The notes beneath the pieces are model-generated. The model was not told the origin of the DNA. It saw only the letters and a program-made list of their open reading frames with translations, and ran no database searches. DNA of 62,899 nt, filler included, from Basidioascus undulatus (taxonomy: Eukaryota), in the NCBI GenBank assembly GCA_000826855.1. It is 8 parts of 8 records of this genome, joined end to end, with 100 filler letters (N's around TTAATTAATTAA, not from the genome) between each part and the next. Parts side by side here need not be neighbours in the genome. Positions count along the whole stretch, not along the records: positions 5,302 to 10,489 come from JTLS01001988.1; 7 more parts are not named here. One strand, given 5' to 3'. The first letter of the stretch is position 1. Each line of letters opens with the position of its first letter. This document shows positions 3,320-59,721 of this stretch, in pieces. Position numbers and translations under genes: made by a program.

Positions 3320-4019
3320 TCGCTCGGCCTTCGCCGTTCTGAGTTAGACGGGTTGGTTGTGGTGCGGCGTGCGGGTGCGGCTGGGGGTGGGAGTGGAGCT
3401 TAGACCGGTGGATCGGTGGATGATGCTTGGAGGCGGGAGAGGAGCAGGAGATGGAGTGGATGGGTGGGAAGACGAGCCGTAATGCGATGGGATGGATGGA
3501 CGAGAGGTGCAAATACAAGGCTCGGTTTTGTGGATCCCGCTTGGCGTCCCGTCCGCACATGTTCGGAGCGGAGGACGGCCTGATGCGTGCGGCTGCGATG
3601 CTCTGGAGGACATAGGCCTGTGAGGAGAGCTTGCTTGCTGGGACACTTCATGGGGACAGTTCATGGCATCGAGTGGGCGTACTGATGGGTCAGGCAGAAG
3701 CCATTGTCCCTCCTTGGTGCATCGGGGAAGACGCTGGTTTAGAGCGTAGTCCAACTTGTCTTCAAACCATTTCCGGCTTCACATGCCCCCTTTTGCTTCG
3801 GCTTCGGCTGATGAGTCGAGGCGAGGCAGAAGGCAGAAGGCAGAAGACGGGTGCAAATAAAATTCCCACGGTCGCGGGGCTCAGAATTTGGGAGCCCTGC
3901 CTGGGGCGACGCGTCTTCCTTCGTCGCTCCATCCATCGACCATTTATCGCATTCTGTTTCGTTAGAAAGGACTGGATACCTCGCCGCGGATCGTATTTTT
4001 CCACAGCCCCGCATACAGA

Positions 4020-5201
4020 ATGTGCGTCGCTTTCCATCCTGCCCGGCCGCGCACTCGTCCGCTCATCTCTGACCTCCCCCGCCTCAGGACCCGCTACACC
4101 AACATCGGCCGCAAACGGACCTACGTCGAAGCGACCGGCTTCGTCCCCCGCTCCCCCTCACCCGGTCCCCAGCCCGAAACCTCCGCCGCTGCCGCCACCG
4201 CCGCACCGGAGCCCACAGCGGACGCGGAAGGCGCACCGGCGGACGGCGAGCCGCCCAAGAAGAAGAAGCGCATCCGCAAGTCAGCGAAGAAGTACAAGCG
4301 GGCCGCAGAGCGTGCTGAGGCGGAGGCGGCTGCGAAGGCCAAGGCTGAGGTCGAGGGCGGCGAGGCAACTGGGGAAGGTGAGGGGGAGGGTGAGGGTGAG
4401 GGCGAGAAGAAGGAGAGTGGGCCGAAGAATGCGAAGGAGCGGAAGAAGGAGAAGCGGAAGAGGGAGCTGAAGGCGCAGCTGAAGGCGCAGAGGCTTTCGG
4501 CGAAAGGTGCGGAGATCATTTCTTGGCTTCGTACTGGAGAGGCGGAGGAATGGGGGCTGATATGGAGGGATTGGGATCGGTCGGGTCGCAGAGCGCTCCG
4601 AGCAGCGCAGGCAGGCACGCATCACCGAGCGCAACGCCACGACGACGTGCTTTGCGTGTCGGGAGCGCGGGCACTCTGCGCGGGACTGCCCGCGGGCGCT
4701 CGAGGGCGAGAAGGCGGGATTAAAGGGCAGCGAGATGGTCGGGATCTGCTACAGGTGCGTGCTGCCACTTCTCTCAGATAGTCATGCTGAGATTGGACTG
4801 ATTGCGGCTCGGTCCGGGTGGTGGTGGTTGCTGTAGATGCGGTTCGACCGAGCATGCCCTGCGCGACTGCAGGGCCCCTCTGCCGAAGAAGGGCGGCTCG
4901 CTCCCGTTCGCGTCGTGCTTCATCTGCTTGGAGAAGGGCCATCTCGCCTCGAAATGGTCAGTTATCGCTGTTCCTTCTTTTCTCACCTCTGCTCGCCTCA
5001 CATAGCCACCTCTTCCTTTTAGCCCCAAGAACCAAGGCCGCGGCGTCTACCCCACCGGCGGGAGCTGCAAGATCTGTTCGTCGGTCGAGCACCTTGCGAA
5101 GGACTGCCCGACGCACCAGCCCCGTCCGTCTCCCCCTTCCCTCCCTCCCCCTCCTTCCTTCTTTCCCCCTTCCCCCTACGCGTTCACCCCCCGCCGCCGC
5201 C
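4020..5201 (+). CDS. CCHC zinc-knuckle protein (ZCCHC9-like), 3' end truncated by gap
   Basis: N-terminus MTRYTNIGRKRTYVEA, a K/E-rich region, then four knuckles across exons: CFACRERGHSARDC, CYRCGSTEHALRDC, CFICLEKGHLASKC, CKICSSVEHLAKDC. Confidence 0.85.
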
Positions 5202-5301
5202 NNNNNNNNNNNNNNNNNNNNNNNNNNNNNNNNNNNNNNNNNNNNTTAATTAATTAANNNNNNNNNNNNNNNNNNNNNNNNNNNNNNNNNNNNNNNNNNN
5301 N
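5202..5301. other. Artificial contig linker
   Basis: N44-TTAATTAATTAA-N44, which gives stops in all six frames. Confidence 0.99.
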
Positions 5302-5823
5302 CCCATTCTCGTGGGCTCACAGTCAACCTCACCACGTGGCAAGTCCACCCTGATTAAATTGGGGCAAGTGTACCTGCTCCTCCCAAGAGCCCTCGGCTTG
5401 CACAGCGATGAGGTCCGCAGACATTTTGGCGGTGAAAATGGGGGAAAAGGGGGGCGGGAAGGGAGAGGGGACGAGCGGAAGAGCGCGGTGTAAGGCGAAC
5501 AAGAGCAAGGAGGAAGGCCACCTTTCAAAGTAGCGCGGGCGAGAAGACGCTGACTAAGCACGTCAACCGGTCACTGACAGCTTCACAGTCGCGGCAGCCA
5601 CAAAATATGACAGTCACTTTCTGCGCCAGGCCAACATAACTGGGTGTTTAGATTCCATATAACGGTATAAAACATCATGCAACGTAATACATGCGACCGG
5701 CCAGGCGCGAGCGTTGCGCATACAGCACAGTGGACGACGACAGCGACTATTCACCTTCAACAAGCCTGCAGCCCCTCGACTTGAAACAGATTCATCATGG
5801 AACTCATGCATCAAAACCTCCCC

Positions 5824-7002
5824 TCACTTCAGCTCAGCCATCAACGCCAGCCTCTCCTCCCTCTCGCGCTTCTCGATCCTCGCATGCCTCCTCCATCCTT
5901 TCCCGAGCCCGTCCTCATGCCTCTGCCTTCTCGCGCGCTCGCACTCAATCTCACGCACCTCCGCAGCAGTGTACGTGATCTGCTTGCGCTTCTTCGAGGA
6001 CGCCTTGAGGCCGATGCCGAGCCGGTCGGCCTTGAGGTGCACGGCGATGGGCGTCACGCGCGGGCGCTCGGAGGGCGGCAGGTTGGCAGAGGCGGCGGCG
6101 GGGGAGGGTGCGGTCGGGCGGAAGATGGAGTCGGGTGGTGTGGGCGAGCGGGAGGAGCCGAGGGAAATGGGCGAGTCGGAGCGGTGGAAGGTGGGCTTGA
6201 CGTCCTCCTCGCCCTCCTCATCCGAATCGCCTGTCAGGTCCACCACCTCCCTCTCCTTCCCCTTCCCTCTCCCTCCGCCCTTCTCCTGCTCCCTCTTCAC
6301 CACACATTCCCTGGGGCGTGCGCCCCTCCCCAAACCCTCGCCCTCCGTCCACCCCTGCCCAGCTAGCATCGCGTACCCCCTGTTGCCCGGCCCCAGCGCG
6401 AGCCACGGCGGCGGCTCGTAGCGCTCCGTCCCGGGCAGAGGGGGCGGGTCGGACGCGATGAGGTCCGCGAGCGACGGGGGAGTGTTGGTGCGCGTTGTGG
6501 GCGCGGAGGAGGCGAGGGAGCGGGTGATGAACCACGTTGGGTCGCTGCGGCGTGAGGCGGACGGGCGTAACGAGTGTGAACGACGCGGTGGAGGAGCGGA
6601 CCTCGATGGGGGAGGAGATGCCCGAGAAGAAGGACCCGCTTCTGCCTCCCTCTCCTCGCCCAACAGCGCAGCGTAGAACCCCCTCGCCATCTGCACCTTA
6701 TCCTTCCCTCCCTCCGACCCCAACCCAGGCTTCGCCGCGCCCCCGCCAACTGGGACGCCATACTCGTCCACCGCCAGCGATGCCTTAGTGAACTTGATAG
6801 GCCTGCGCCGGCGCAGCTGCGGGCCGTACGTGGGCTGCTTCCACGCGTCGTCGTCGGGTGGTGGGGCGCTGGGCCCGGCGACGGGCGCGGAGGAGACCGA
6901 GGAGGGGTCGTCGGTCTGCTCCGGTGCCGGAGGCGTGCGCGAGCGGATGTACACCGCTGGGGGCCACTGCGGGATCGGAGGGGGGGTGGCGGAGCGTGAC
7001 AT
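5824..7002 (-). CDS. G-patch domain protein (single exon)
   Basis: Long ORF containing the G-patch motif LGPGNRGYAMLAGQGWTEGEGLG...PIAVHLKADRLGIG. Likely start is MSRSATPPP at 7002. Confidence 0.8.
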   Translation of the reverse strand: MSRSATPPPIPQWPPAVYIRSRTPPAPEQTDDPSSVSSAPVAGPSAPPPDDDAWKQPTYGPQLRRRRPIKFTKASLAVDEYGVPVGGGAAKPGLGSEGGKDKVQMARGFYAALLGEEREAEAGPSSRASPPPSRSAPPPRRSHSLRPSASRRSDPTWFITRSLASSAPTTRTNTPPSLADLIASDPPPLPGTERYEPPPWLALGPGNRGYAMLAGQGWTEGEGLGRGARPRECVVKREQEKGGGRGKGKEREVVDLTGDSDEEGEEDVKPTFHRSDSPISLGSSRSPTPPDSIFRPTAPSPAAASANLPPSERPRVTPIAVHLKADRLGIGLKASSKKRKQITYTAAEVREIECERARRQRHEDGLGKGWRRHARIEKREREERLALMAELK

Positions 7003-7679
7003 GAGCGTTGGATATGGTGGCGACCGAAACGACGGGAGGTGATGTAGTCGAGAGATGAGAGGGAGAGGTGGGAGGGAGGAGGGCGAGGTCGACATTACGT
7101 AATGCAGCATGGCAGGAGTTTTAAGTGCCAAATTTCGGACTGTTTGAATCGCTTCGGACGTTGAGATGTCATCCATCTCTCAGCATAACTCCTGCATTGC
7201 TGACGGATAGGACCCTTCAACAGCCTCTCCGACTAGTGCTGCGCAGTCTAAGACTGCTGAACATCACCGACAACATGTCCAGATCCCGCTCCCCGAGGTA
7301 CGGCTGGTCTCAGTGAGCTAAGGCGAATCCCAGGGAATAAAGAGCAGCAACGAGGGCAGAACGGCACGAGTGCATCCACCAGTCTGGTGTTACGACTCGA
7401 CATTGCGGTCCTCAGCAACTCCCTGCCAGTGTTAGTTATCCTGCGCAGGCCTGCCGGGGGCTGCCGTCGCTGCAGTGCTTACTTGGTCTATGCACATGAA
7501 ATAGTGCGCAATTTGATCTCCCGAAGAACCCCAACCGTGAAGGAGTATCAGTAAATTCAAGTACAGCGGAGCTGCCGCCGAGAAACAGTAAAACAAACAT
7601 CGAGTCGCTGGTCAAACGGCACACAGCGCAAACAAGAAACATCATGCGATTATGAGCGGCAAGGAACAAAAGCGATAGC

Positions 7680-8260
7680 CTAAACCGAAGCTCTTCCATG
7701 TACAGCTTCTTCTAGTCCTCGGGGCGGAGACCGAAGCGCATTTCGCGAGACGAAGAAGCGGGAGGGGCGGTCACTGCGTTCGCGCCCGAGCCTCACATCA
7801 CACACGCCAGCCCGTCCTCCGCCAGAGCTCAGAGTTTCGGCACTCTCGAATCTTTCTTTCTTCTCCCGGTCCCAGTCCCAATCGACGCGAGGAAGCGAGG
7901 ACGCCTCGAACGGCCGGAAGAGTTGGGCGTTCTGAGTATAAGGATGCCCGTGAAGCTTCATAGCCTTGGAAGCTGGTATATGGAACAATGTTTTGAATTC
8001 AGGTTCGATAAATAACGGGAAGTACGCACTCAGCTCGTAATCACGGACAGGGCCTTCGACCTGCGGACACAGGAGATAGACGCCGACCATGACCTCCACG
8101 GTCCCACGAAGGTGCGAAAGCTTGGAGGACCAGAGTGCAGTAACACGGCCTATCCATAAAATCTCCTCGAAGTAGTCCCCGACGTCCTTAAGTCGCCTGT
8201 TTTTGAGAGGCGCCGAAGCGAAGGAGCCAAATACCAGCGTGGACAGGGAACAAACACGCT
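7680..8260 (-). CDS. Exon of a hypothetical protein (possibly BAH-like beta domain); gene may extend upstream toward ~10150
   Basis: Open frame ...DVGDYFEEILWIGRVTALWSSK...VEVMVGVYLLCPQVEGPVRDYELSAYFPLF looks globular, but I do not firmly recognise the family. Confidence 0.3.
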
Positions 8261-10423
8261 CGCGCAGAACGGTGGCGGTGAGTACGAACTCGGAAATGCA
8301 GGTGAATAATCTCTGGTTGGAAGCAGTTGTGGCGTTAGGTCTGGGCGTGGGGGACGGAACAGATCAGAGTAATGTCCGGCATGCTTTGAGGACAGTTTTC
8401 ACGTACAGAAATTCAGAGTAAGCAACGACCAGGGACTTCAGGATGTAAATCCTGCCTTTCGAACTTTCTTCGAGCTCGAGTGATGAAATAGTCGGGGTCT
8501 CACGCGCTTCATCACATTGCGCGACGAGGCGAATCTCTGGAAGCGAGCGGATGAGCGGGAGGATTTGCTCCCGAGTCGTATGCGACGAGGACGCCGGCGA
8601 CCGTGGAGTGTCGCATGCTCTTCGAGAACCCGGAGGACGGATTGAGTGAAGACCACCCGCCGTATGTCGTCGACGAGGAGGGCAAAGGCAGACCTGTGGC
8701 TGTCGAAAGGGTGCGGGCGGGCTCCGAAGGAGTAGTCCATGACCAGGAGAAGCTGAAGGCCGCCTGCGGAAGGGAGGGACTGTCTATCAAGGGATGGGGT
8801 ATTTGGAGCGGGGAGAGGCCGGCCATGGAGGGAGTCGGGCTTGCGAGGCGGCGCGGTGGGGGTGGACTTGAGAGGGGCGGGCGAAGGAGATACCATGGCC
8901 GGTTCGAAAGGGGCAGGCACAAGGTTTTGTGGAAGAGGGAATGAGGGAGTCGAAAGGAGACACTGAGGAAGCGGAGGTGTTGAGGGAGGGAGATGGCTGA
9001 ATGGCATGCCCCGCTGAGGCAGTCGTGTCGGAAGCACATTGAGGTCGGCATGAGCCTCCGCCTTCACTCCGCTCCTCGCTTTAACCATTCCATTCACGAT
9101 GGTCTAGACTCGAGTAAAGGTGAACCCAGAATATTCAAGTGCTACTACATAAGCACCCTCTTTCTTAATGGAGGTTCGCATCAGACTGTCGTCGCTCTCA
9201 GTCCCACATCAGCCCACCTCTTCCAGTTATTTCGAATGTCCTGCCCTCGAGGGTCAGCCTAAGTAGGGTGCAATGTTCCGAAGAGCAATATAGATCATTC
9301 ACAAGGGCTACGGAAAACAAAGGTGGGTCTCACTTGTGAGGGCCGAACTACGAGCAGAAGTTTCGGGCAGTCCCGACTGGATGCTTTCGACCGCACTGCG
9401 CTCTTGTCCCCATCCTGCAGTGTCGCTTTTGTACCGCGTAAGAGGACAATTATTAGGGCACTTAATTTGCCCGTGCATCATGTATGCGCCATAATCCCCC
9501 TGTCTCCCACCGTCGCACAGTCAGCATTCACGTTACAACAGGCTGTCTGCGACCCTGCGGTTCATCGAGCTCACCCTGATACAACACCTTTGATTCGCCG
9601 CTACCTTTAGCCGACTTTAGCATCGCTTCTTCTTCCGCCTGACTTTTTTTTTGGACTCCACTCTTCCCCTGCATTTTCCGCTCCGGAGGAGCAGAAGATG
9701 CGGAGCGGAGAAAAAAAGAGAAAGGCAGTCCGAAGGTGAGAGACGTTCGGCAGTCCAGCACGATGATTGCGGCGCACACTAGCGTAAAGTGTCGCAGGCC
9801 AGTCTGATGCGATTCTGACACACGGATCAGGCTGGGCTATCTTCCCCTGCAGACTGCGGCATTCTGACTGGGGAGAGGTACGCTGCATAAAGCCGTCCAC
9901 AGTCCGCATAAAGCAGGGCGGAGCGAGAGTAGCGCGCGGCTTGACCAGTTAAGTAAAGTATCGTGAGACAATTGTTAGGAACTGACGTGCGAGTGCGGCG
10001 TCGCGAGCCAGCTAAAGGAGTCGGACGCGATTCTGACATTACGTTCACCGGTACGTATCCAACTTGGCTTACAATCGGACTGACAGGAGCCGGAATTGGA
10101 ATTGGCATGATCTTTGCCGTCATATTATGAAAGGCTGCTGTGAGCGAGTTCATTGTCTGGATAAATCTGCGAGTATACTGGGTTGTAGCAAAGAGCAGCG
10201 GGCGGAAAGTCTGTACTTCATGATGATCGCTCAAAGTCGAGTCGGGTTTGGCAGACTCTACGCGATCTCCGTTACTTTACTCTAAAAAAAGGGGGATTTC
10301 TACACAGGTAAAACAGGCAGTCTTGTCAATCCCCCTCATGGTCGACAGCTTGGCTGCCAGCTGCGGGTGGACAAGCGGGAAGGCGAGCGTTGCCGTCCGG
10401 CAGAATACCAGCTTTTGTGACGC

Positions 10424-10429
10424 AAAAAA
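10424..10429 (-). terminator. RNA polymerase III oligo(T) terminator
   Basis: T6 on the minus strand, separated by one C from tRNA position 37. Confidence 0.7.
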
Positions 10430-10430
10430 G

Positions 10431-10489
10431 TCGTAGTCAGATACTCTACCATTGAGCCAGCCGGCCGTGACCGACGCAGGGATCGAACC
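10431..10489 (-). tRNA. tRNA-Arg(ACG), apparently circularly permuted (3' half upstream of 5' half); upstream part lost in gap
   Basis: Minus strand reads GG TTCGATC CCTGC GTCGGTC A | C | GGCCGGC TG GCTC AATGGTA GAGT A TCTGA CT ACG A | C TTTTTT. GGCCGGC (10466-10460) pairs with GTCGGTC (10475-10469). The D-arm is intact and the anticodon ACG is at 10434-10432. Confidence 0.8.
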
Positions 10490-10589
10490 NNNNNNNNNNN
10501 NNNNNNNNNNNNNNNNNNNNNNNNNNNNNNNNNTTAATTAATTAANNNNNNNNNNNNNNNNNNNNNNNNNNNNNNNNNNNNNNNNNNNN
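10490..10589. other. Artificial contig linker
   Basis: N44-TTAATTAATTAA-N44. Confidence 0.99.
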
Positions 10590-15776: not shown

Positions 15777-15876
15777 NNNNNNNNNNNNNNNNNNNNNNNN
15801 NNNNNNNNNNNNNNNNNNNNTTAATTAATTAANNNNNNNNNNNNNNNNNNNNNNNNNNNNNNNNNNNNNNNNNNNN
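15777..15876. other. Artificial contig linker
   Basis: N44-TTAATTAATTAA-N44. Confidence 0.99.
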
Positions 15877-41803: not shown

Positions 41804-41903
41804 NNNNNNNNNNNNNNNNNNNNNNNNNNNNNNNNNNNNNNNNNNNNTTAATTAATTAANNNNNNNNNNNNNNNNNNNNNNNNNNNNNNNNNNNNNNNNN
41901 NNN
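41804..41903. other. Artificial contig linker
   Basis: N44-TTAATTAATTAA-N44. Confidence 0.99.
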
Positions 41904-42668
41904 TGCCCTGCCCGCGCCAGCCCGCGGTGGGGGGTGCCGCCGCCGCCCGTGCTGGATGGGTCGACGCTTTCGCCTGAAGTGCGCTCGTCGGTAGGTAACA
42001 AGCCGTCCAGCTGCTGGTGTTGGATTCTTTTTCTTCTTCGCAGTTTGTACTACCTTCTCTTTCTCGTTCTTTTGCCGCTTTAGTTGCCTTTTCTACGCTC
42101 GCTTCGTTGTTGTCTGATACCCCTATGAGCATCGCATTGCATCTTGCTGATTGGGCTGCTCGACGTCTGAACTGTGCGATGCCCAAGCATCCAAGTGCCT
42201 GAACGCGACCAAAGATTTCCGATCCATTTCGCGTTGAGGGAGATTCTCGAGGTGACCGGTTCTGTTGTATTTGTTGACCTTGAAGTGTTCTGATTGGAAA
42301 GAAAGGGATTGAAACGGCGCTAGTTGAAGCATGACGAAGTGAGCGATCGCGAAGGCAACGTTACGTTTCAGAACGCGCCCTTGCCGCGCAGGAGGTCGCC
42401 TTGGGTCGCCAGGCGCTGGACAACTTGGACTCTGCTCACGCCCACTGCGGCAGCTCGATCTTTTGGGCTCGACGACCTTCACGCTTCCTTTTTTAAGACG
42501 ACGATCTAGAGCAGACTTACACGACACTCGATACGGCGTGCCAGCTCACGACTCACGACTCTCCTCCTCGCTATCCGCGGGCTTGTCGAGCCCACAGCTC
42601 GTTCAGTGACCCCGCGCGCCCGCTCCCCCTCTCCCTTCCCCCACGCTGGCACCCCCGGCGTAACCGCG

Positions 42669-45600
42669 ATGGACTCGCTGTTCCGGTCGACTAAGAAAAA
42701 GTCGCGGCAGCAGCGGCAGTCGACGGACCCCGCCGAGGGCTCGGTGCCGTACGACCGCCTCGACCCGGCGACGCGCTCGCCCATCCCCGTCCACACCATC
42801 TCCTCCCGTGGCTCCTCTGCCAGCGTCGCGCCCTCCTTCATCTCCGCGCCCAACACGAACCCAACCCTCAGCGCGTCCGGCACCGACGTCAACCTCCACA
42901 CCCTCGGGGCAAGCGCGCGCGGGAGCGCAGGCTCCAGCAGCCACCACCGCCGCACGGCGGGCGGCGGAAGCGAGGACAGCGGCGATGGGAGAACGACGGT
43001 GCGCAGCCCGACGGTGAGCAGCTTTGGGAGCACGGGAGGGAGGAGGTCCCCTTACCATTCTGGCGCGGGCGCGGGCGGCGGCGGGCCGGAGGACCCCCCC
43101 GGCCGGATGGGCCCGCCGCAGGGGGGCGGCGTGTCCGCAACGCTCGCGTCGGGGGGTCGAAGACCCTCGCGCAATCCTGCACCGCCGTCATCCGACACCG
43201 CCTCGGTGCGCTCTGCACGCTCGTCCCAGTTCTCCTTCGCAACGTCCGAGCTGGCACAGCGCGCGCTCGCGGACTTTGGGCTCTCCCCCTCCGGCACACC
43301 ACCCACGACCGCCTCCGCCTCGCATCGCTCCTTCGGGTCCTCCTCCACGCTCTCCCATCACCGCAGCGGCGGCGGTGGCGCGGCGGTGAACGACGTTGCC
43401 TCGCTGTCGTCGGAGGAGGTCGAGGCGCGCTTCGAGCGCCTTGTCGCGAGCGTGACGCAGGGCGGCGGCGACGCGGCCAAGCTCCGCGCCGTCTCGCTCG
43501 AGAACAAGCGCGCTATGCTCCAGAGCTACAACGTCCAGCAGAAGCAGGCCGTCGAGGGCAGCCGAGCCGGACACTCCCCCGAGTGGTACATCCGCAAGTT
43601 CGTCAGCGGGACGGTCGTGCATACGGATGTCGGGCACTTGGCGGTTAGCTTGCGGACGATGCCGATCGAGTGAGTTGGTTTTCAGATTTGGGATGTATTG
43701 GAATGTGGCGGGTGATTGGGGCTGGTTGGATGTGGCGCTGTGATGGGGTGCTGACTGCTGCCCGTTTCACTTCGTCGCAGATGGCTACGGGAGTTCATCC
43801 AGTGCAAGGGGCCTCATGTTCTTGCAACTGCATTAGAGAAGATCAACCACCGGACAGTACGGTACGCCATGGGTTTCTTGTGTGGCCACGCATGCTGCAG
43901 CTCATCCTACTTTCCTGCACGCAGACGAGAAGGCGACGCTGCGCTCGAGTCAGAGATCCTGAAGTGTTTCCGCCATGTCCTCAACCATACTGTAAGTCTC
44001 AAAGTTTGATTGTGTTAAGAGGAACACTCCGCTGACAGAGTCGATGCAGCTCGGCGCGACAGATGTCACGTCTCAGCCCGACGCAGTCTACGCCATAGCC
44101 GCGTCGATCCTCAGCCCCCAGCTCCTGACGCGCAAGCAGGCGGCCGAGATCCTCGTCTTCCTCTCGTCATGGGAGAAGCCGCACGGGCACCACCTCGTCA
44201 TGACCGCCTTCGACAAGCTCGCCGAGCAGTGGAACGACCCGGCGCGCTTCGACCCGTGGCTCAAGGCGTTCGAGAGCACGATCGACGGCCGCGGACGCAT
44301 GGGCAGCATGGTCGGCGCGAGCGAGGAGCTGCGCAAGGCGGTCACGGCGGAGCAGTCACTCATCGACTATGCGGTGCGTGCTGCTTGGATGCGGCTGTCT
44401 TTGTTCTGCACTGAAATTTTACTAACGCGACGCGCTCTTTTTTGCTTCACAGGCCATAAATCTCATGCTCGTCAACCAGATCCTGGACCTCGACGACTCG
44501 GATGTCCGTGTGCACCTTCGCACGCAGCTCGAGGCGTCCGGCATCAAGCGGATCTTCGAGAAGCTCCGGACGCTACGGAGCCCGAAGCTGGAGGACATGA
44601 TGGTCACGTACGAGGAGTACGCGGAGGACGACTTCGAGTTCCTCGTGCAGTCGCAGCGCGCGCAGCTGCTCAAGGACCTTCGAGATCCAGAGGACGTCTT
44701 CCGCGCGATCCTCGCGCAGGTCGAGGGCTCGCGGGCCGCTGACTTCTTTCTCGCGCTCCTTCAGCACCTCCTCCTCCTCCCGACCGACTCGGAGCTCCGC
44801 ACGCGCTACCTCCAGCTCATCGACAGCCTCGTCGCGGGCGTCGTTCTCGACCGCAAGGGCGTCACGAACGACTTTTCGTCCCTCGCCAATGTCTCGGTCA
44901 GCAGCGTCATCTCGCGCTTCGCTGACCAAGACCGGCTCCAGAAGCTCGAAGAGCAGCTCGAGGCCGAACGCGGCACGACGTACAAGCTCCGGCGCCAGAA
45001 CGAGGAACTCCTCGCCGAGCTGCCCTCCGCCGCGGGCGGCGGCGGCGCGGACGCAGGCGCGGTCGTGGCGCTCAAGGCGAAGCTGAAGGAGACGGAGGAG
45101 GCGCTCCACATCTCGCGCAGCGCGACGATCACCGTGCAGAGCAAGATGGACGACATGGAGGCCGAGCTCAACAAAAAGATCGCCGAGCTCGAGTACCTCG
45201 TCCGCGAGCTGTTCGCCATGCTCAAGCAGCTCGGCGGGTTCGAGGGCTTCCTCTCCGCCAGCGACGTGGCCACGGACACCAACCATCTCGAGCGCGCAGA
45301 GCTCGTCGCCGATCTCGAGCGCCGACTCGCTCGGCAAAAGACCGTCCGCAAGCTCGAGGGGCTCGGCGACGGTGCCGCTGCCTCGGGTAGGTCGCCGCCG
45401 CTCCCGAACGACCTCCCTTCGTCCGCATCCGATCCGTCCGGTCTCACTGACGCCGCCGAGATGGACGCGCGCTCAGCTGCTGCGGGCGGAAAGGGCGGGA
45501 AAGGCGGGAAAGGCCACGATCGCGCGCAAAGCCTCGGGCGATCGTCGCAGTTCATGGACGCGGAGGACGAGCGGGTCCGGCAGCACATCGAAGACTCGCT

Positions 45601-46400
45601 CGCGACGGGCGTGCGACAGCTCTACCCCGTGCGCCCGAATGGCGTCGACCGCGCCAGAGTACCTTCACCTCGCTCCATCCGCTCGCGCGACCTCGTTCCG
45701 CACGGCGACGACGACCCTTCCCATCGCCGAGCGCTCGTCCGACCTCAGCTTCGCGCGTCCATCGGAGGTCCGACCTCGTCCAGAAGTCCCACACCCGGCG
45801 CGGCTGGCTCAGCGGACAGCCTCAGCCCGAGCGCGCCGGGCACGCCGACCGCGGGGCTTCGCTCGTCGAAGCGGCTTCCGAGTGGGCTCGGTCCAGGGCG
45901 CAACCTCAGCCTGCTGGTGGAGATCCGGAACCGGGGGAAGCGCACGCCGTCGGGGACGCTGCTCAACTCGGACGGCGTGCCCATAGACGAGGATGCGCCC
46001 TTGCCACAGGTCGACGAGGAGACGGGCTCGGATGACGGCGCGAGCGAGGCAACGCGCATGCGCGGCAGCGGGTTCACCGCACGCAGCGACGACACGCAGG
46101 TCACGAGCGTCGCGTCTGTGGACCTCGCTAGTCGCGGCGTCAACAGCTTCGAAGCAATGCTGCAGCAGAAGGCGAAGGCGCTGCGCCGCGCTGGGGAGAC
46201 TGACGATGACGTGCCGTCGAGCGGCCAGGTCTCCCCACCGCTGCCGACCCTCGCGGAAGAGGCAACACCGTCATCCGCTGCTCCCCCGCCGCCACCGCCA
46301 CCACCTCCCCCTCCTCCATCGATCGCTGGCGTCAACGGCGGCTTCCCCCTTTCCCGTCCTTCCTCCCCTTCCCCTGCCCCTCCGTCGTCCCTTCTCTCGT
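42669..46400 (+). CDS. Diaphanous-related formin (SepA/Bni1-type): GBD/FH3, coiled coil and start of FH1; FH2 absent
   Basis: SPEWYIRKF...LAVSLRTMPIE|WLREFIQCKG; FESTIDGRGRMGSMVGASEE; RVHLRTQLEASGIKRIFEKL; LLQHLLLL...RYLQLIDSLV; polyproline at ~46283-46320. Confidence 0.9.
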
Positions 46401-46554
46401 ATGTGGCGTGCTGCGAGATGTGCACCCGTTGCTAGCGCTTATATGTCATGACCGCTTCGCTGCAACTGCGTTTGGAAGTGCAACAGAATTGGGAATGAAA
46501 ACCCTAGAAGGTCTTCACCGTCTGACGCTTCCTTCTCCTTCCTTTCCTTCGCAG

Positions 46555-47083: not shown

Positions 47084-47183
47084 NNNNNNNNNNNNNNNNN
47101 NNNNNNNNNNNNNNNNNNNNNNNNNNNTTAATTAATTAANNNNNNNNNNNNNNNNNNNNNNNNNNNNNNNNNNNNNNNNNNNN
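47084..47183. other. Artificial contig linker
   Basis: N44-TTAATTAATTAA-N44. Confidence 0.99.
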
Positions 47184-52361: not shown

Positions 52362-52461
52362 NNNNNNNNNNNNNNNNNNNNNNNNNNNNNNNNNNNNNNN
52401 NNNNNTTAATTAATTAANNNNNNNNNNNNNNNNNNNNNNNNNNNNNNNNNNNNNNNNNNNN
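52362..52461. other. Artificial contig linker
   Basis: N44-TTAATTAATTAA-N44. Confidence 0.99.
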
Positions 52462-57634: not shown

Positions 57635-57734
57635 NNNNNNNNNNNNNNNNNNNNNNNNNNNNNNNNNNNNNNNNNNNNTTAATTAATTAANNNNNNNNNN
57701 NNNNNNNNNNNNNNNNNNNNNNNNNNNNNNNNNN
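57635..57734. other. Artificial contig linker
   Basis: N44-TTAATTAATTAA-N44. Confidence 0.99.
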
Positions 57735-59721
57735 CGAGTCGCGCCCCGTTGCCAAGCGCGCGGGAGACGCCGTCTTCACGGGCACGACGAACCTCGGCGC
57801 GCCCGTCGTCCTCCGCGTCACGGCCGTCGGCGGGGAGACGATGATCGACCGGATCGTGCGCATCGTCGCGGAAGCGCAGGGGAGGAAGGTGTGCCTTTGT
57901 CGCCGGTTTCAACTCGCGCTGCTGCTTTGAGTACTTGCTGACCTTGGAGTTGGACGCGGCCGGCAGGCACCGATCGAGAAGCTCGCGGACGCGATCGCGG
58001 GCGTATTCGTCCCCGCCATCGTCGCCATCGCGCTCGTCACGCTCGTCGTCTGGCTCGCGGTGGCCGTATCAGTCGACACGCTGGACGGCAAGACGGACAG
58101 GGGGGACAAGATCTTCTTCGCCATCCAGTTTGCGATCGCGGCGCTCGTGTGAGTGTTCCAGAGTCGCTTCAGGCTGTCATCGTGCGTGCATAGGAGCGCT
58201 GACTGACGTTAGCGCTTTGCTGGTGCGTGGGCGGATGGACAGCATCGCCTGCCCTTGCGGGATCGGGCTCGCCGCGCCGACAGCCCAGGCAGTTGGCAGC
58301 GGTCTTGCTGCCAAGTACGGCGTCCTTGCGCACGGCGGTGGAGAGGCGTTCCAAGCTGCGACGCAGGTGGACTGTGTCGTGTTCGATAAGACAGGCACGC
58401 GTGCGTATCCTCCTCGCTCCACACTTTTTTCCATCGGAGGGAGGCGAGCTGACGTGTTGGTCGAGACGCAGTCACTACCGGCGACCTCACCGTGACGGAC
58501 GAGACGATCCTCCTCCCCGACATCAGCGCGGAAGTCGCCGCCCCGCTCTGGAGCGCGCTCGCCCAGCTCGAAGACGGCTCGACGCACCCCCTCGCGCAGG
58601 CAGTCCGAGCCACCGCACGCGCGCGCCTCGCATCGCTCGCGTCTGTCCCGTTTCCACGCCTCCTCTCGTCCGAAGAAGTCCCCGGACGGGGGGTCATGGG
58701 CGTCTTTCAGTGTGTCGACACGGCGGGCAAGATCGAGGTCCGCGTCGGAAACGAGCAGTTCATGGACGGCGCGGCGCCCCTCCACCCGCGCACCACGACG
58801 CTCCTCGACACCTGGAAGGGCGACGGCAAGTCGGTCGTCCTGGTCTCCGTGCGTGCCCTCCAGCCCTCCGCGCCCTCCACCAGCGGCTTCACACCCCTTG
58901 AGGGCCAGTCGACAGTCGCCTTTGTCCTCGCCGTCGCGGACGCTCCGCGCCCTGAAGCGGCGTCGACCGTCTCCGCCCTGCGCAGTTCCGGCAAGGCGGT
59001 CTGGATGCTGTCTGGCGACAACGCCATCACAGCGCGGACCGTCGCGCGGCAGGTCGGCATCGAGGACGCGCACGTCATCGCGGACGTCCTGCCCGCGGAG
59101 AAGGCGGAGCGCATCCAGTGGTTGCAGGCACATGCGGGCATAAAGACTGGGGCCGCTGGAAGGAGGCTGGGGAGGTGGTTCACGAGGAGGAAGGGCAAGG
59201 CGGAGAGGGAGACGCGCGCGCTGGTGCTCTTCTGCGGGGACGGCCTCAACGACGCGGCAGCGATCGCTATGGCCGATGTTGGGTGCGTCGTACCACTGCC
59301 GCATCTGCTTTGTTTCTGGAGTGCTTACCCTTCCGTCGTTCTCGGCTATTCGCAGCGTGGCCATGGGCACCGGATCCCAAGTTTCCGTCTCCTCAGCTCA
59401 CGTGCGCCTTCTCCCTCTTCTCTCCCCCTTGCTTCGCTAGACTCCTCATAAGTCGTCGCTGTCCAGTTCATCCTGCTCCACTCGACGCTCTCCTCCCTCC
59501 TCACGCTCCTCTCCCTCTCGCGCAAAGTCAAGTGCCGCATCGCGCTCAACTTCGCCTGGGCCTGCATCTTCAACGTCGCCGCCATCCCGCTCGCCGCGGG
59601 CGTGTTCTACCCGCTCGGCGTGCGCCTGCCCCCCGTCTACTCGGCCCTCGCGATGGCGCTGTCGAGCGTTAGCGTTGTGGGGTCTAGCTTGGCGCTGCGG
59701 CTGTTTAGGCCTCCGCAGTAG
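57735..59721 (+). CDS. P1B-type copper-transporting ATPase (Ccc2/ATP7-like), 5' truncated
   Basis: ES.PV.K...GTTN; IACPCGIGLAAPT; FDKTGT; HP; MLSGDN; DVLPAEKA; GDGLND; NFAWACIFN; AMALSSVSVV. Confidence 0.95.

Follow-up and report, generated by a model that had tools for sequence, protein, structure and literature searches.

The window analyzed here, a stretch of 62,899 nucleotides (nt) of Basidioascus undulatus DNA, carries on its minus strand, from 10489 down to 10424, a locus in which the parts of a transfer RNA (tRNA) for arginine with the anticodon ACG stand in inverted order, the 3′ part before the 5′ half. It appears likely, at a rough probability of 0.55, that an Agaricomycete has a dispersed family of some ten circularly permuted tRNA-Arg(ACG) genes of type II, i.e., with a junction between nt 37 and 38 of the tRNA, and that this locus represents two thirds, on the downstream side, of one such gene. 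Permuted tRNA genes are a known kind of gene, with this layout described to date from a few algae and one archaeon only, and their occurrence at this fungal locus is likely but unproven. The locus forms the extreme end of the second contig of the window (5302-10489), where its 3′ half is truncated at G52. We infer that it is transcribed and processed, and that no intact 5′ half stands upstream of it.

Read on the minus strand from 10489 to 10424, the sequence GGTTCGATCCCTGCGTCGGTCACGGCCGGCTGGCTCAATGGTAGAGTATCTGACTACGACTTTTTT parses into a T loop, the 3′ strand of an acceptor stem, a spacer, a 5′ half and a run of six T's, and this reading agrees with every coordinate and structural element given in a first-pass annotation of the same DNA. 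The T loop and the 3′ strand of the T stem, from G52 to C65 (10476-10489), are read directly and cut at G52 by the contig end; they comprise G52-C60 (10489-10481) and the T-stem strand CCTGC (10480-10476), and they include a B-box-like motif, GGTTCGATCC (10480-10489). The acceptor 3′ strand GTCGGTC (nt 66-72, 10475-10469) and the discriminator A73 (10468) follow, and a single C (10467) makes up the whole of the sequence between A73 and G1 (10466), so that the proposed 1-nt spacer is borne out by direct reading. The 5′ half of tRNA-Arg(ACG), G1 to A37, is likewise read directly, from 10466 to 10431. It opens with the acceptor 5′ strand GGCCGGC (10466-10460), then U8 and G9, and continues through the D arm (GCTC/AATGGTA/GAGT), A26 and the anticodon-stem 5′ strand TCTGA to the loop CTACGA, in which the anticodon ACG occupies 10434-10432 and A37 lies at 10431. 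An A-box-like motif, TGGCTCAATGG (10449-10459), is located in the D arm, downstream of the B box, and the inverted order of the two boxes is thus as first described. So is the trailer of C plus oligo-T: a single C (10430) directly behind A37, followed, one base after A37, by the T6 run (10429-10424), which is presumed to be the RNA polymerase III terminator. The two acceptor strands (10475-10469 and 10460-10466) pair at seven of seven positions, two of which are G-U pairs (2-71 and 6-67). The visible parts fit the tRNA canon in other respects, i.e., a D stem with four of four pairs, U8, A14, G18 and G19, U33, T54, T55 and C56, and the G53-C61 pair.

This layout is that of a type II permuted gene. 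As far as it is visible, from G52 on, the 3′ half precedes the 5′ half on one strand with a short spacer between them, the junction falls at 37/38, and a T-stretch stands behind the 5′ half with none in the spacer. The break exactly at 37/38 and the immediate T run, as in type II permuted genes, support the assignment. In the passages of PMC3978253 that deal with these genes, 25 of the 32 algal permuted genes listed are of type II, and the T-stretch follows the 5′ half. The type II genes of algae and nucleomorphs (Cyanidioschyzon merolae, Ostreococcus, Micromonas and Bigelowiella natans; Soma 2007 and Maruyama 2010, as presented in those passages) share with the locus the leading 3′ half, the 37/38 junction, the T-stretch, the lack of a terminator in the spacer, the inverted B and A boxes and a CCA end that is not fully encoded. 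The locus differs from them in its fungal host, its Arg(ACG) identity, its 1-nt spacer and its roughly ten copies, against one or two genes.

Automatic annotation does not recover the gene. ARAGORN found no tRNA anywhere in the window, and nothing in the window reached the gathering score of an Rfam family. At a relaxed threshold, the tRNA model RF00005 gave 13.8 bits against a gathering score of 29, which does not describe an ordinary contiguous tRNA. The best relaxed Rfam match was to YrlA (RF02553), at 10414-10489 on the minus strand, and is explained by the module order that the tRNA-like domain of YrlA has in common with the locus (T arm, acceptor, D arm). Membership in that family was rejected, the score being 20.4 bits against a gathering score of 69 and YrlA being bacterial and devoid of an anticodon. 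An ordinary gene with a long intron was also rejected, because the window holds no second T-loop motif and because the flanks of other loci diverge right behind the T run. Indeed, GGTTCRANYC occurs only once in the whole window, in the T loop of the locus. A composite pattern (B box, 19-45 nt, A box, 11-15 nt, CTACGR) has a single match in the window, and 100 shuffles gave none, which argues that the arrangement is not due to chance. A scan of 10200-10489 for bacterial-type promoters and terminators found none, a result not relevant to polymerase III.

The junction was further examined by comparing 9990-10489 with the assembly contigs of three public runs, X1, X2 and X3. X1 and X2 contain 99% of the sampled words of this region and are perhaps sources of the same DNA; they are independent of the contig building of the present assembly, not of the organism. 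No RNA run was listed among those that contain the region. In X1, a 56-base contig, covering 10442-10489 plus eight bases and spanning A26 through G1, the spacer and A73 to about nt 44, has a depth of 175.4 against 16.4-20 for neighboring single-copy contigs. In X2, the same 56-base path has a depth of 472.7 against 31.6-50.1. Since this contig stands at about ten times the single-copy depth, the genome has about ten copies with this junction in common. In each run, six more contigs, 1.8-18.5 kb long and of single-copy depth, run into the element on its left side, two of them at 10422 and four at 10424, and each brings a flank different from the others, which makes at least six other loci with distinct downstream flanks. 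At the locus, the T run is followed by GC (10422-10429), and it is at this GC that the alignment with other loci of the genome sets in. The left ends of these alignments fall at 10422-10426; beyond them the loci diverge, with the T run kept. Similarity between loci that stops at the T run, next to single-copy flanks, is the pattern of a dispersed tRNA gene family.

The layout is therefore that of a dispersed gene family and not an assembly artefact. The element does touch both a contig end and an artificial linker, yet the junction is found in assembly contigs of two runs (dated 2014 and 2025), some of them at ten-fold depth, and an origin by misassembly or concatenation is extremely improbable. 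The contig break at 10489 is what an assembler is expected to produce at such a repeat. The window as a whole consists of eight contigs joined by linkers (N44, TTAATTAATTAA, N44) at 5202-5301, 10490-10589, 15777-15876, 41804-41903, 47084-47183, 52362-52461 and 57635-57734. The second of these joints adjoins the locus, with nt 38-51, the leader and any promoter lying beyond it. Seven of the parts measure 5165-5201 bases each and one 25.9 kb, and features that touch a linker are truncated by assembly rather than by biology.

The same design is present in environmental sequences. An exact 28-base word of the 5′ half had no match in the metagenome collection, and a degenerate pattern (B box, 19-45 nt, TGGCNCAATGG, 11-15 nt, CTACGR) gave 74 matches in 73 metagenome loci. 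These comprise 19 permuted tRNA-Arg(ACG) genes at 18 loci, 50 ordinary tandem pairs and five matches that are neither. A script had flagged 17 as permuted, and these flags were corrected by hand. L052 was rejected as a truncated copy of the ordinary tandem L042 (acceptor 6/7, anticodon stem 4/5), while L066 and both genes of L035, mis-flagged by a loose T-loop filter, were added, all of them pairing 7/7 and 5/5. A scan of one genome per prokaryote species gave one match, which lies in an Anaerolineae bin and is an ordinary tandem pair.

The 19 permuted metagenome genes correspond to nine distinct mature sequences. In each, the 3′ half starts from A38 behind a non-tRNA leader, with no 5′ half before that leader, and a T run lies 1-19 nt behind nt 37, except in L035, where the first gene is followed by a second permuted unit. 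When the halves were swapped, ARAGORN called tRNA-Arg(acg) in 20 of 20 cases, the window's version included. In an alignment of 15 rows (A1: the window and 14 metagenome genes, exact duplicates left out), the swapped cloverleaf is paired in 95.8% of cells, a value reached by none of 500 shuffles and compared with 31-57% in slid controls. Eight of the 21 pairs change on both sides, a figure likewise not attained in the 500 shuffles, and compensatory changes affect four of the seven pairs of the acceptor helix, which joins the two halves. The swapped fold is kept under covariation in the relatives.

The closest relatives, L006, L022 and L066, come from a single metagenome, each on a GC-rich contig of its own. 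As tRNA, they match the window locus at 82% identity and share with it A37 and the G2-U71 wobble; the other permuted loci are 65-71% identical. Complete type II Arg(ACG) genes with AT-rich flanks were recorded at L013, L015, L024, L027, L032, L034, L035, L037, L041, L044, L049, L056, L063 and L068, as well as at L048, and we take the 14 AT-rich-flank loci to be algal-like. All these metagenome genes (L006, L022 and L066, L048 and the 14 AT-rich loci) resemble the locus in their isoacceptor, in a junction at 37/38, in the T run and in the cross-half acceptor helix; they differ from it in their visible leaders and in their spacers, of 4-26 nt against 1 nt. Open frames in the 300-base flanks of L006, L022, L066 and L048 showed nothing recognizable. 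A T run followed by GC (TTTTGC) also occurs in L022, L024, L032, L035, L048, L049 and L066 and may be a terminator context effect. In L006 (1-140), the eight-base leader motif AATCGTCA, directly before A38, recurs in the trailer 16 bases behind A37, and the start of the motif is visible in the same way in L022 (minus strand, 270-400). This repetition resembles the borders of a lost 37/38 intron, such as would remain after an origin from a duplicated gene with an intron.

The upstream side of the element is seen in X3, which stems from the same sample as X2, contains next to none of the unique words of the region and may represent this organism, a relative or RNA. A 93-base contig of this run aligns twice to the stretch (10446-10489), with 19 letters between the two alignments, TGCAACCCCCTGATCTCAA (plus strand). 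On the tRNA strand, the last 14 of these letters directly precede G52 and read as A38, TCAGG, which pairs at five of five positions with TCTGA, a five-base variable loop, and GCA, which completes the T stem at three of three. These eight new pairs out of eight are strong internal evidence that the 3′ half begins at nt 38 in this family. With the halves swapped and the 14 letters supplied, ARAGORN calls tRNA-Arg(acg); the full cloverleaf of the locus is called only with these letters borrowed from X3. Before A38, the contig reads TTGAG and thereby places a G three bases upstream of nt 38, where the first-pass annotation had expected one; the expectation holds in the X3 contig only.

Upstream of TTGAG, the X3 contig continues with nt 1-21 of a 5′ half, including its A box, preceded by the spacer C and another 3′-half end. 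The contig starts and ends with the same 30 bases and so describes a 63-base loop in the assembly graph. There, the boxes keep their normal order, with an A box 21 nt before the B box, and the remnant that carries this A box is devoid of nt 22-37, such that the anticodon can come only from the downstream 5′ half. The loop could correspond to a short arrangement (remnant 5′ piece, 3′ half, full 5′ half) or to a longer array; either it is a tandem array of anticodon-less units, or the remnant places an A box upstream of the B box. For the upstream structure, this evidence is of limited weight, as X3 may stem from a relative or from RNA and as the matches listed for X1 and X2 show no such joint.

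The ordering of the pieces raises the question of whether an ordinary, complete tRNA-Arg(ACG) gene lies upstream, the duplicated 5′ half, one base after the discriminator, being merely its 3′ trailer up to T6. RNase Z would then free an ordinary tRNA, leaving the half copy as a by-product or as the vestige of a tandem duplication. The upstream part does lie outside the window, short-spacer tandems are common (50 of the 74 metagenome matches and the one prokaryote match), and tandem repeats with an extra 5′ half beside a permuted gene are described for Ostreococcus lucimarinus in a passage of PMC3978253. The half copy, however, ends exactly at nt 37 and is conserved among loci like the 3′ part, whereas a mere trailer would drift, and it would be unusual for some ten loci to have their terminator 38 nt past the 3′ end. 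The upstream piece in X3 lacks nt 22-37. In X1 and X2, one contig reaches the junction from upstream DNA of 2.5 kb and 50.7 kb, respectively, and ends at A26; among the matches listed, neither shows a joint or a second 5′-half piece upstream, although the corresponding joint was detected in X3. Altogether, an ordinary gene with a half-copy trailer seems improbable. Dimeric tRNA genes read as one transcript do exist in yeasts, such as tRNA-Arg/tRNA-Asp in Saccharomyces cerevisiae and tRNA-Ser/tRNA-Met in Schizosaccharomyces pombe. They resemble the locus in the succession of a 3′ end, a few bases, the next 5′ end and one terminator behind the second unit, yet their units are complete and of different identities, while the second unit of the locus stops at nt 37 and pairs with the first.

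Several observations weigh against a permuted gene. The nt 38-51, leader and promoter of this locus are outside the window, and an intact upstream 5′ half is conceivable there; the sole upstream view, that of X3, could show a tandem array or satellite instead of a clean gene; and the one-base bridge is sterically awkward for a circular intermediate of the algal type. Among the copies listed, 1/47, 3/53, 4/48 and 6/66 bases differ from the window locus, a divergence that exceeds the expectation for identical functional copies, and the acceptor stem here contains two G-U pairs. In X1, the summed depth is 3448-4444 over the 5′ half against 791 over the junction; with 509 over the T loop, the 5′ half has four to six times the values of junction/acceptor and T loop (10415-10489). 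This excess may come from overlapping short contigs added together or from extra, unlinked copies of the 5′ half. Summed depth was rejected as a measure of copy number because it adds up overlapping short contigs, and the single 56-base contig was used instead.

Part of this evidence would suit a non-functional tRNA-derived repeat that yields no decoding tRNA, i.e., retro-copied or recombined fragments, a family resembling short interspersed elements (SINEs), or the edge of a 63-base tandem array. In its favor are the multiple copies with up to 6/66 differences, the excess summed depth over the 5′ half, the X3 loop without anticodon arm, the two acceptor G-U pairs, and a contig that breaks as at a repeat. 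Such a repeat is nonetheless unlikely, given that the loci cease to resemble each other at the T run, next to long flanking contigs of single-copy depth, that the break lies at 37/38 with a terminator and all visible cloverleaf pairs are intact, that the copy number fits codon demand, and that independent lineages keep the design under covariation. The box order is wrong for the head of a SINE. A tRNA-derived SINE proper was rejected on the reversed boxes, the end of similarity at the T run and the single-copy downstream flanks.

The excess depth over the 5′ half, together with its own A box and terminator, would also be compatible with a stand-alone 5′-half gene, whose product is a split tRNA joined in trans or a small 5′-half-like RNA, the upstream 3′ piece being incidental. 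We consider this very improbable, since a matching 3′ strand lies one base upstream, with 7/7 pairing, and the junction exists in about ten copies. No polymerase III promoter is known to consist of an A box alone, which also counts against a gene of this type. Split tRNAs are known from archaea only, as far as the passages of PMC3978253 and PMC13578239 on the subject go. A split tRNA of the Nanoarchaeum type was rejected in particular, with halves one base apart on one strand and a junction present in about ten copies.

For a permuted gene, the following pathway can be proposed. Polymerase III would start beyond the contig end, on the upstream side of the 3′ half, where a TATA-like element or the A box of a remnant would direct it, and transcription would end in T6, one base behind A37. 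The first-pass annotation had called for an upstream TATA or surrogate A box. An A box was found only in the X3 remnant (nt 1-21), and a TATA-like motif lies 38-61 nt before A38 in nine of 14 related genes, a count that leaves out L006, which has only 20 upstream bases. The motif of the relatives agrees with the TATA-dependent model described in PMC3978253, as far as its passages on promoters go. The precursor would fold as a cloverleaf, with A73-C-G1 closing the acceptor stem and with the open ends, the leader on one side and the trailer C with its U's on the other, in the anticodon loop. The tRNA-splicing endonuclease would then remove leader and trailer at 37/38, the canonical site, and tRNA ligase would join A37 to A38.

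Because 37/38 is the position measured by the ruler-type eukaryotic endonuclease (PMC3978253, in the passage on splicing), an enzyme of this type would need no long bulge-helix-bulge, and a ruler mechanism with an anticodon-intron pair would be a reasonable expectation at the locus. In X3, the leader TTGAG placed in the canonical register gives C32-G(-3), A34-U(-5) and C35-G(-6) with one U-U mismatch; RNAfold prefers another continuous helix. Among the relatives, constrained folds of L013, L027, L034 and L044 have a leader GUAG, three bases before A38, that pairs with C32-C35, and that of L032 has a long leader-trailer helix. In the folds of L006, L022 and L066, a conserved leader AAUCGU pairs with A34-A37 and with the first U's of the trailer. 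The earlier idea that the trailer of the locus is too short for an extended bulge-helix-bulge does not single it out, as the trailer before the T run is 1 nt in L034 too, with 3-6 nt in several other relatives, and the U run can itself form pairs with a leader. The short trailer is within the range of the relatives, and the 1-nt spacer is the one extreme feature. The further suggestion of an adapted processing and transcription machinery found no support.

At the acceptor end, the first-pass annotation required both RNase P and RNase Z to open the short loop. RNase P is kept in the present proposal, where it would cut between the spacer C and G1, while RNase Z would perhaps be dispensable. The spacer base is a C directly after the discriminator, such that the RNase P cut alone would leave A73-C, a normal substrate of the CCA-adding enzyme; the spacer C would stay on A73 as C74, and the enzyme would add just C and A. 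RNase P may act before ligation, because an intact acceptor helix is hard to close with a bridge of one base, and the intermediate would then be a two-piece, base-paired molecule rather than a circle.

The spacer also bears on how the family may have arisen. In model C of PMC3978253, a precursor circularized at its acceptor end is reverse transcribed and integrated. The one-base C spacer fits an RNA-mediated origin better than a tandem duplication, because the latter would leave trailer, terminator and leader between the halves. A bolder extension can be put forward tentatively, as a possibility that we regard as doubtful. The roughly ten genes that encode the major arginine tRNA of an Agaricomycete would all, or almost all, be permuted, a first in fungi or any opisthokont. 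They would be born by reverse transcription, rather than by tandem duplication, from a circularized, end-processed precursor with A73 and one C at its 3′ end, an origin that would account for the C spacer as well as for the dispersal to many loci. Only RNase P would then act at the acceptor end, with the spacer C as C74 and perhaps a two-piece intermediate.

By its sequence, the contig of the locus is fungal, and the host is a basidiomycete of about 35 Mb, the size of runs X1 and X2. The proline-/serine-rich G-patch protein that it encodes (5824-7176, minus strand) has nine relatives at E ≤ 0.001, six of which carry organism names (Lentinus, Peniophora, Antrodiella, Pyrrhoderma, Vararia and Candolleomyces), genera that we take to be Agaricomycetes. 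A Diaphanous-type formin is encoded on another contig of the window, and its nearest protein-atlas clusters are basidiomycete. A separate short repeat at 10058-10125 is represented by contigs of 324-330 bases at a depth of 578 in X1 and 4025 in X2, which corresponds to tens of copies per genome, and it is also present in X3.

Codon usage in four open reading frames of the window (5824-7176, 42510-46432 and 58453-59448 among their coordinates) provides a context for the copy number. CGC, CGT and CGA account for 110 of the 168 arginine codons; CGC is the most frequent (82/168) and AGA is rare (7). Eukaryotes read these three codons through the inosine-modified product of ACG genes. Given the high use of the three codons and their decoding by inosine, tRNA-Arg(ACG) would be the major arginine tRNA, for which a multi-copy family is expected, and about ten copies fit this codon demand.

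Searches for literature on permuted tRNA with fungi, Basidiomycota or Agaricomycetes, or from 2015 on, found no fungal case, mostly as judged by titles, and the Agaricomycetes titles listed all concerned mitochondrial genomes. No fungal permuted tRNA appears in the passages on 'permuted' of PMC13578239, PMC8450103 and PMC12633428, nor in those of PMC3978253, whose table (2014) includes 34 permuted genes, none from an opisthokont and none for Arg(ACG). According to the same passages, spacers measure 5-74 nt in eukaryotes and 1-7 nt in Thermofilum pendens, of which tRNA-Tyr(GTA) (Chan 2011, as presented there) is the only permuted tRNA described with a 1-nt spacer like that of the locus. It differs from the locus in being archaeal, in its 59/60 junction, in its encoded CCA, which makes a longer acceptor loop, and in its intron.

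If the permuted reading is true, it would extend such genes to a new host kingdom and to an isoacceptor that the published table lacks, and it would add a multi-copy family and a spacer that is the shortest in eukaryotes. The metagenome loci also contribute the Arg(ACG) isoacceptor, absent from the permuted-gene table of PMC3978253. The one-base spacer bears on the way in which such a short acceptor-end bridge is opened, a question left open in the same passages, where the removal of the 1-nt bridge of the T. pendens Tyr gene is described as unclear. With a fungal case, an organism with a ruler-type splicing endonuclease and TFIIIC would be shown to tolerate a permuted layout, and the recruitment of polymerase III to inverted boxes would become a question in a group with genetic tools. 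Since ARAGORN and Rfam both miss the gene, such a family would also explain a possible hole in automatic tRNA annotation.

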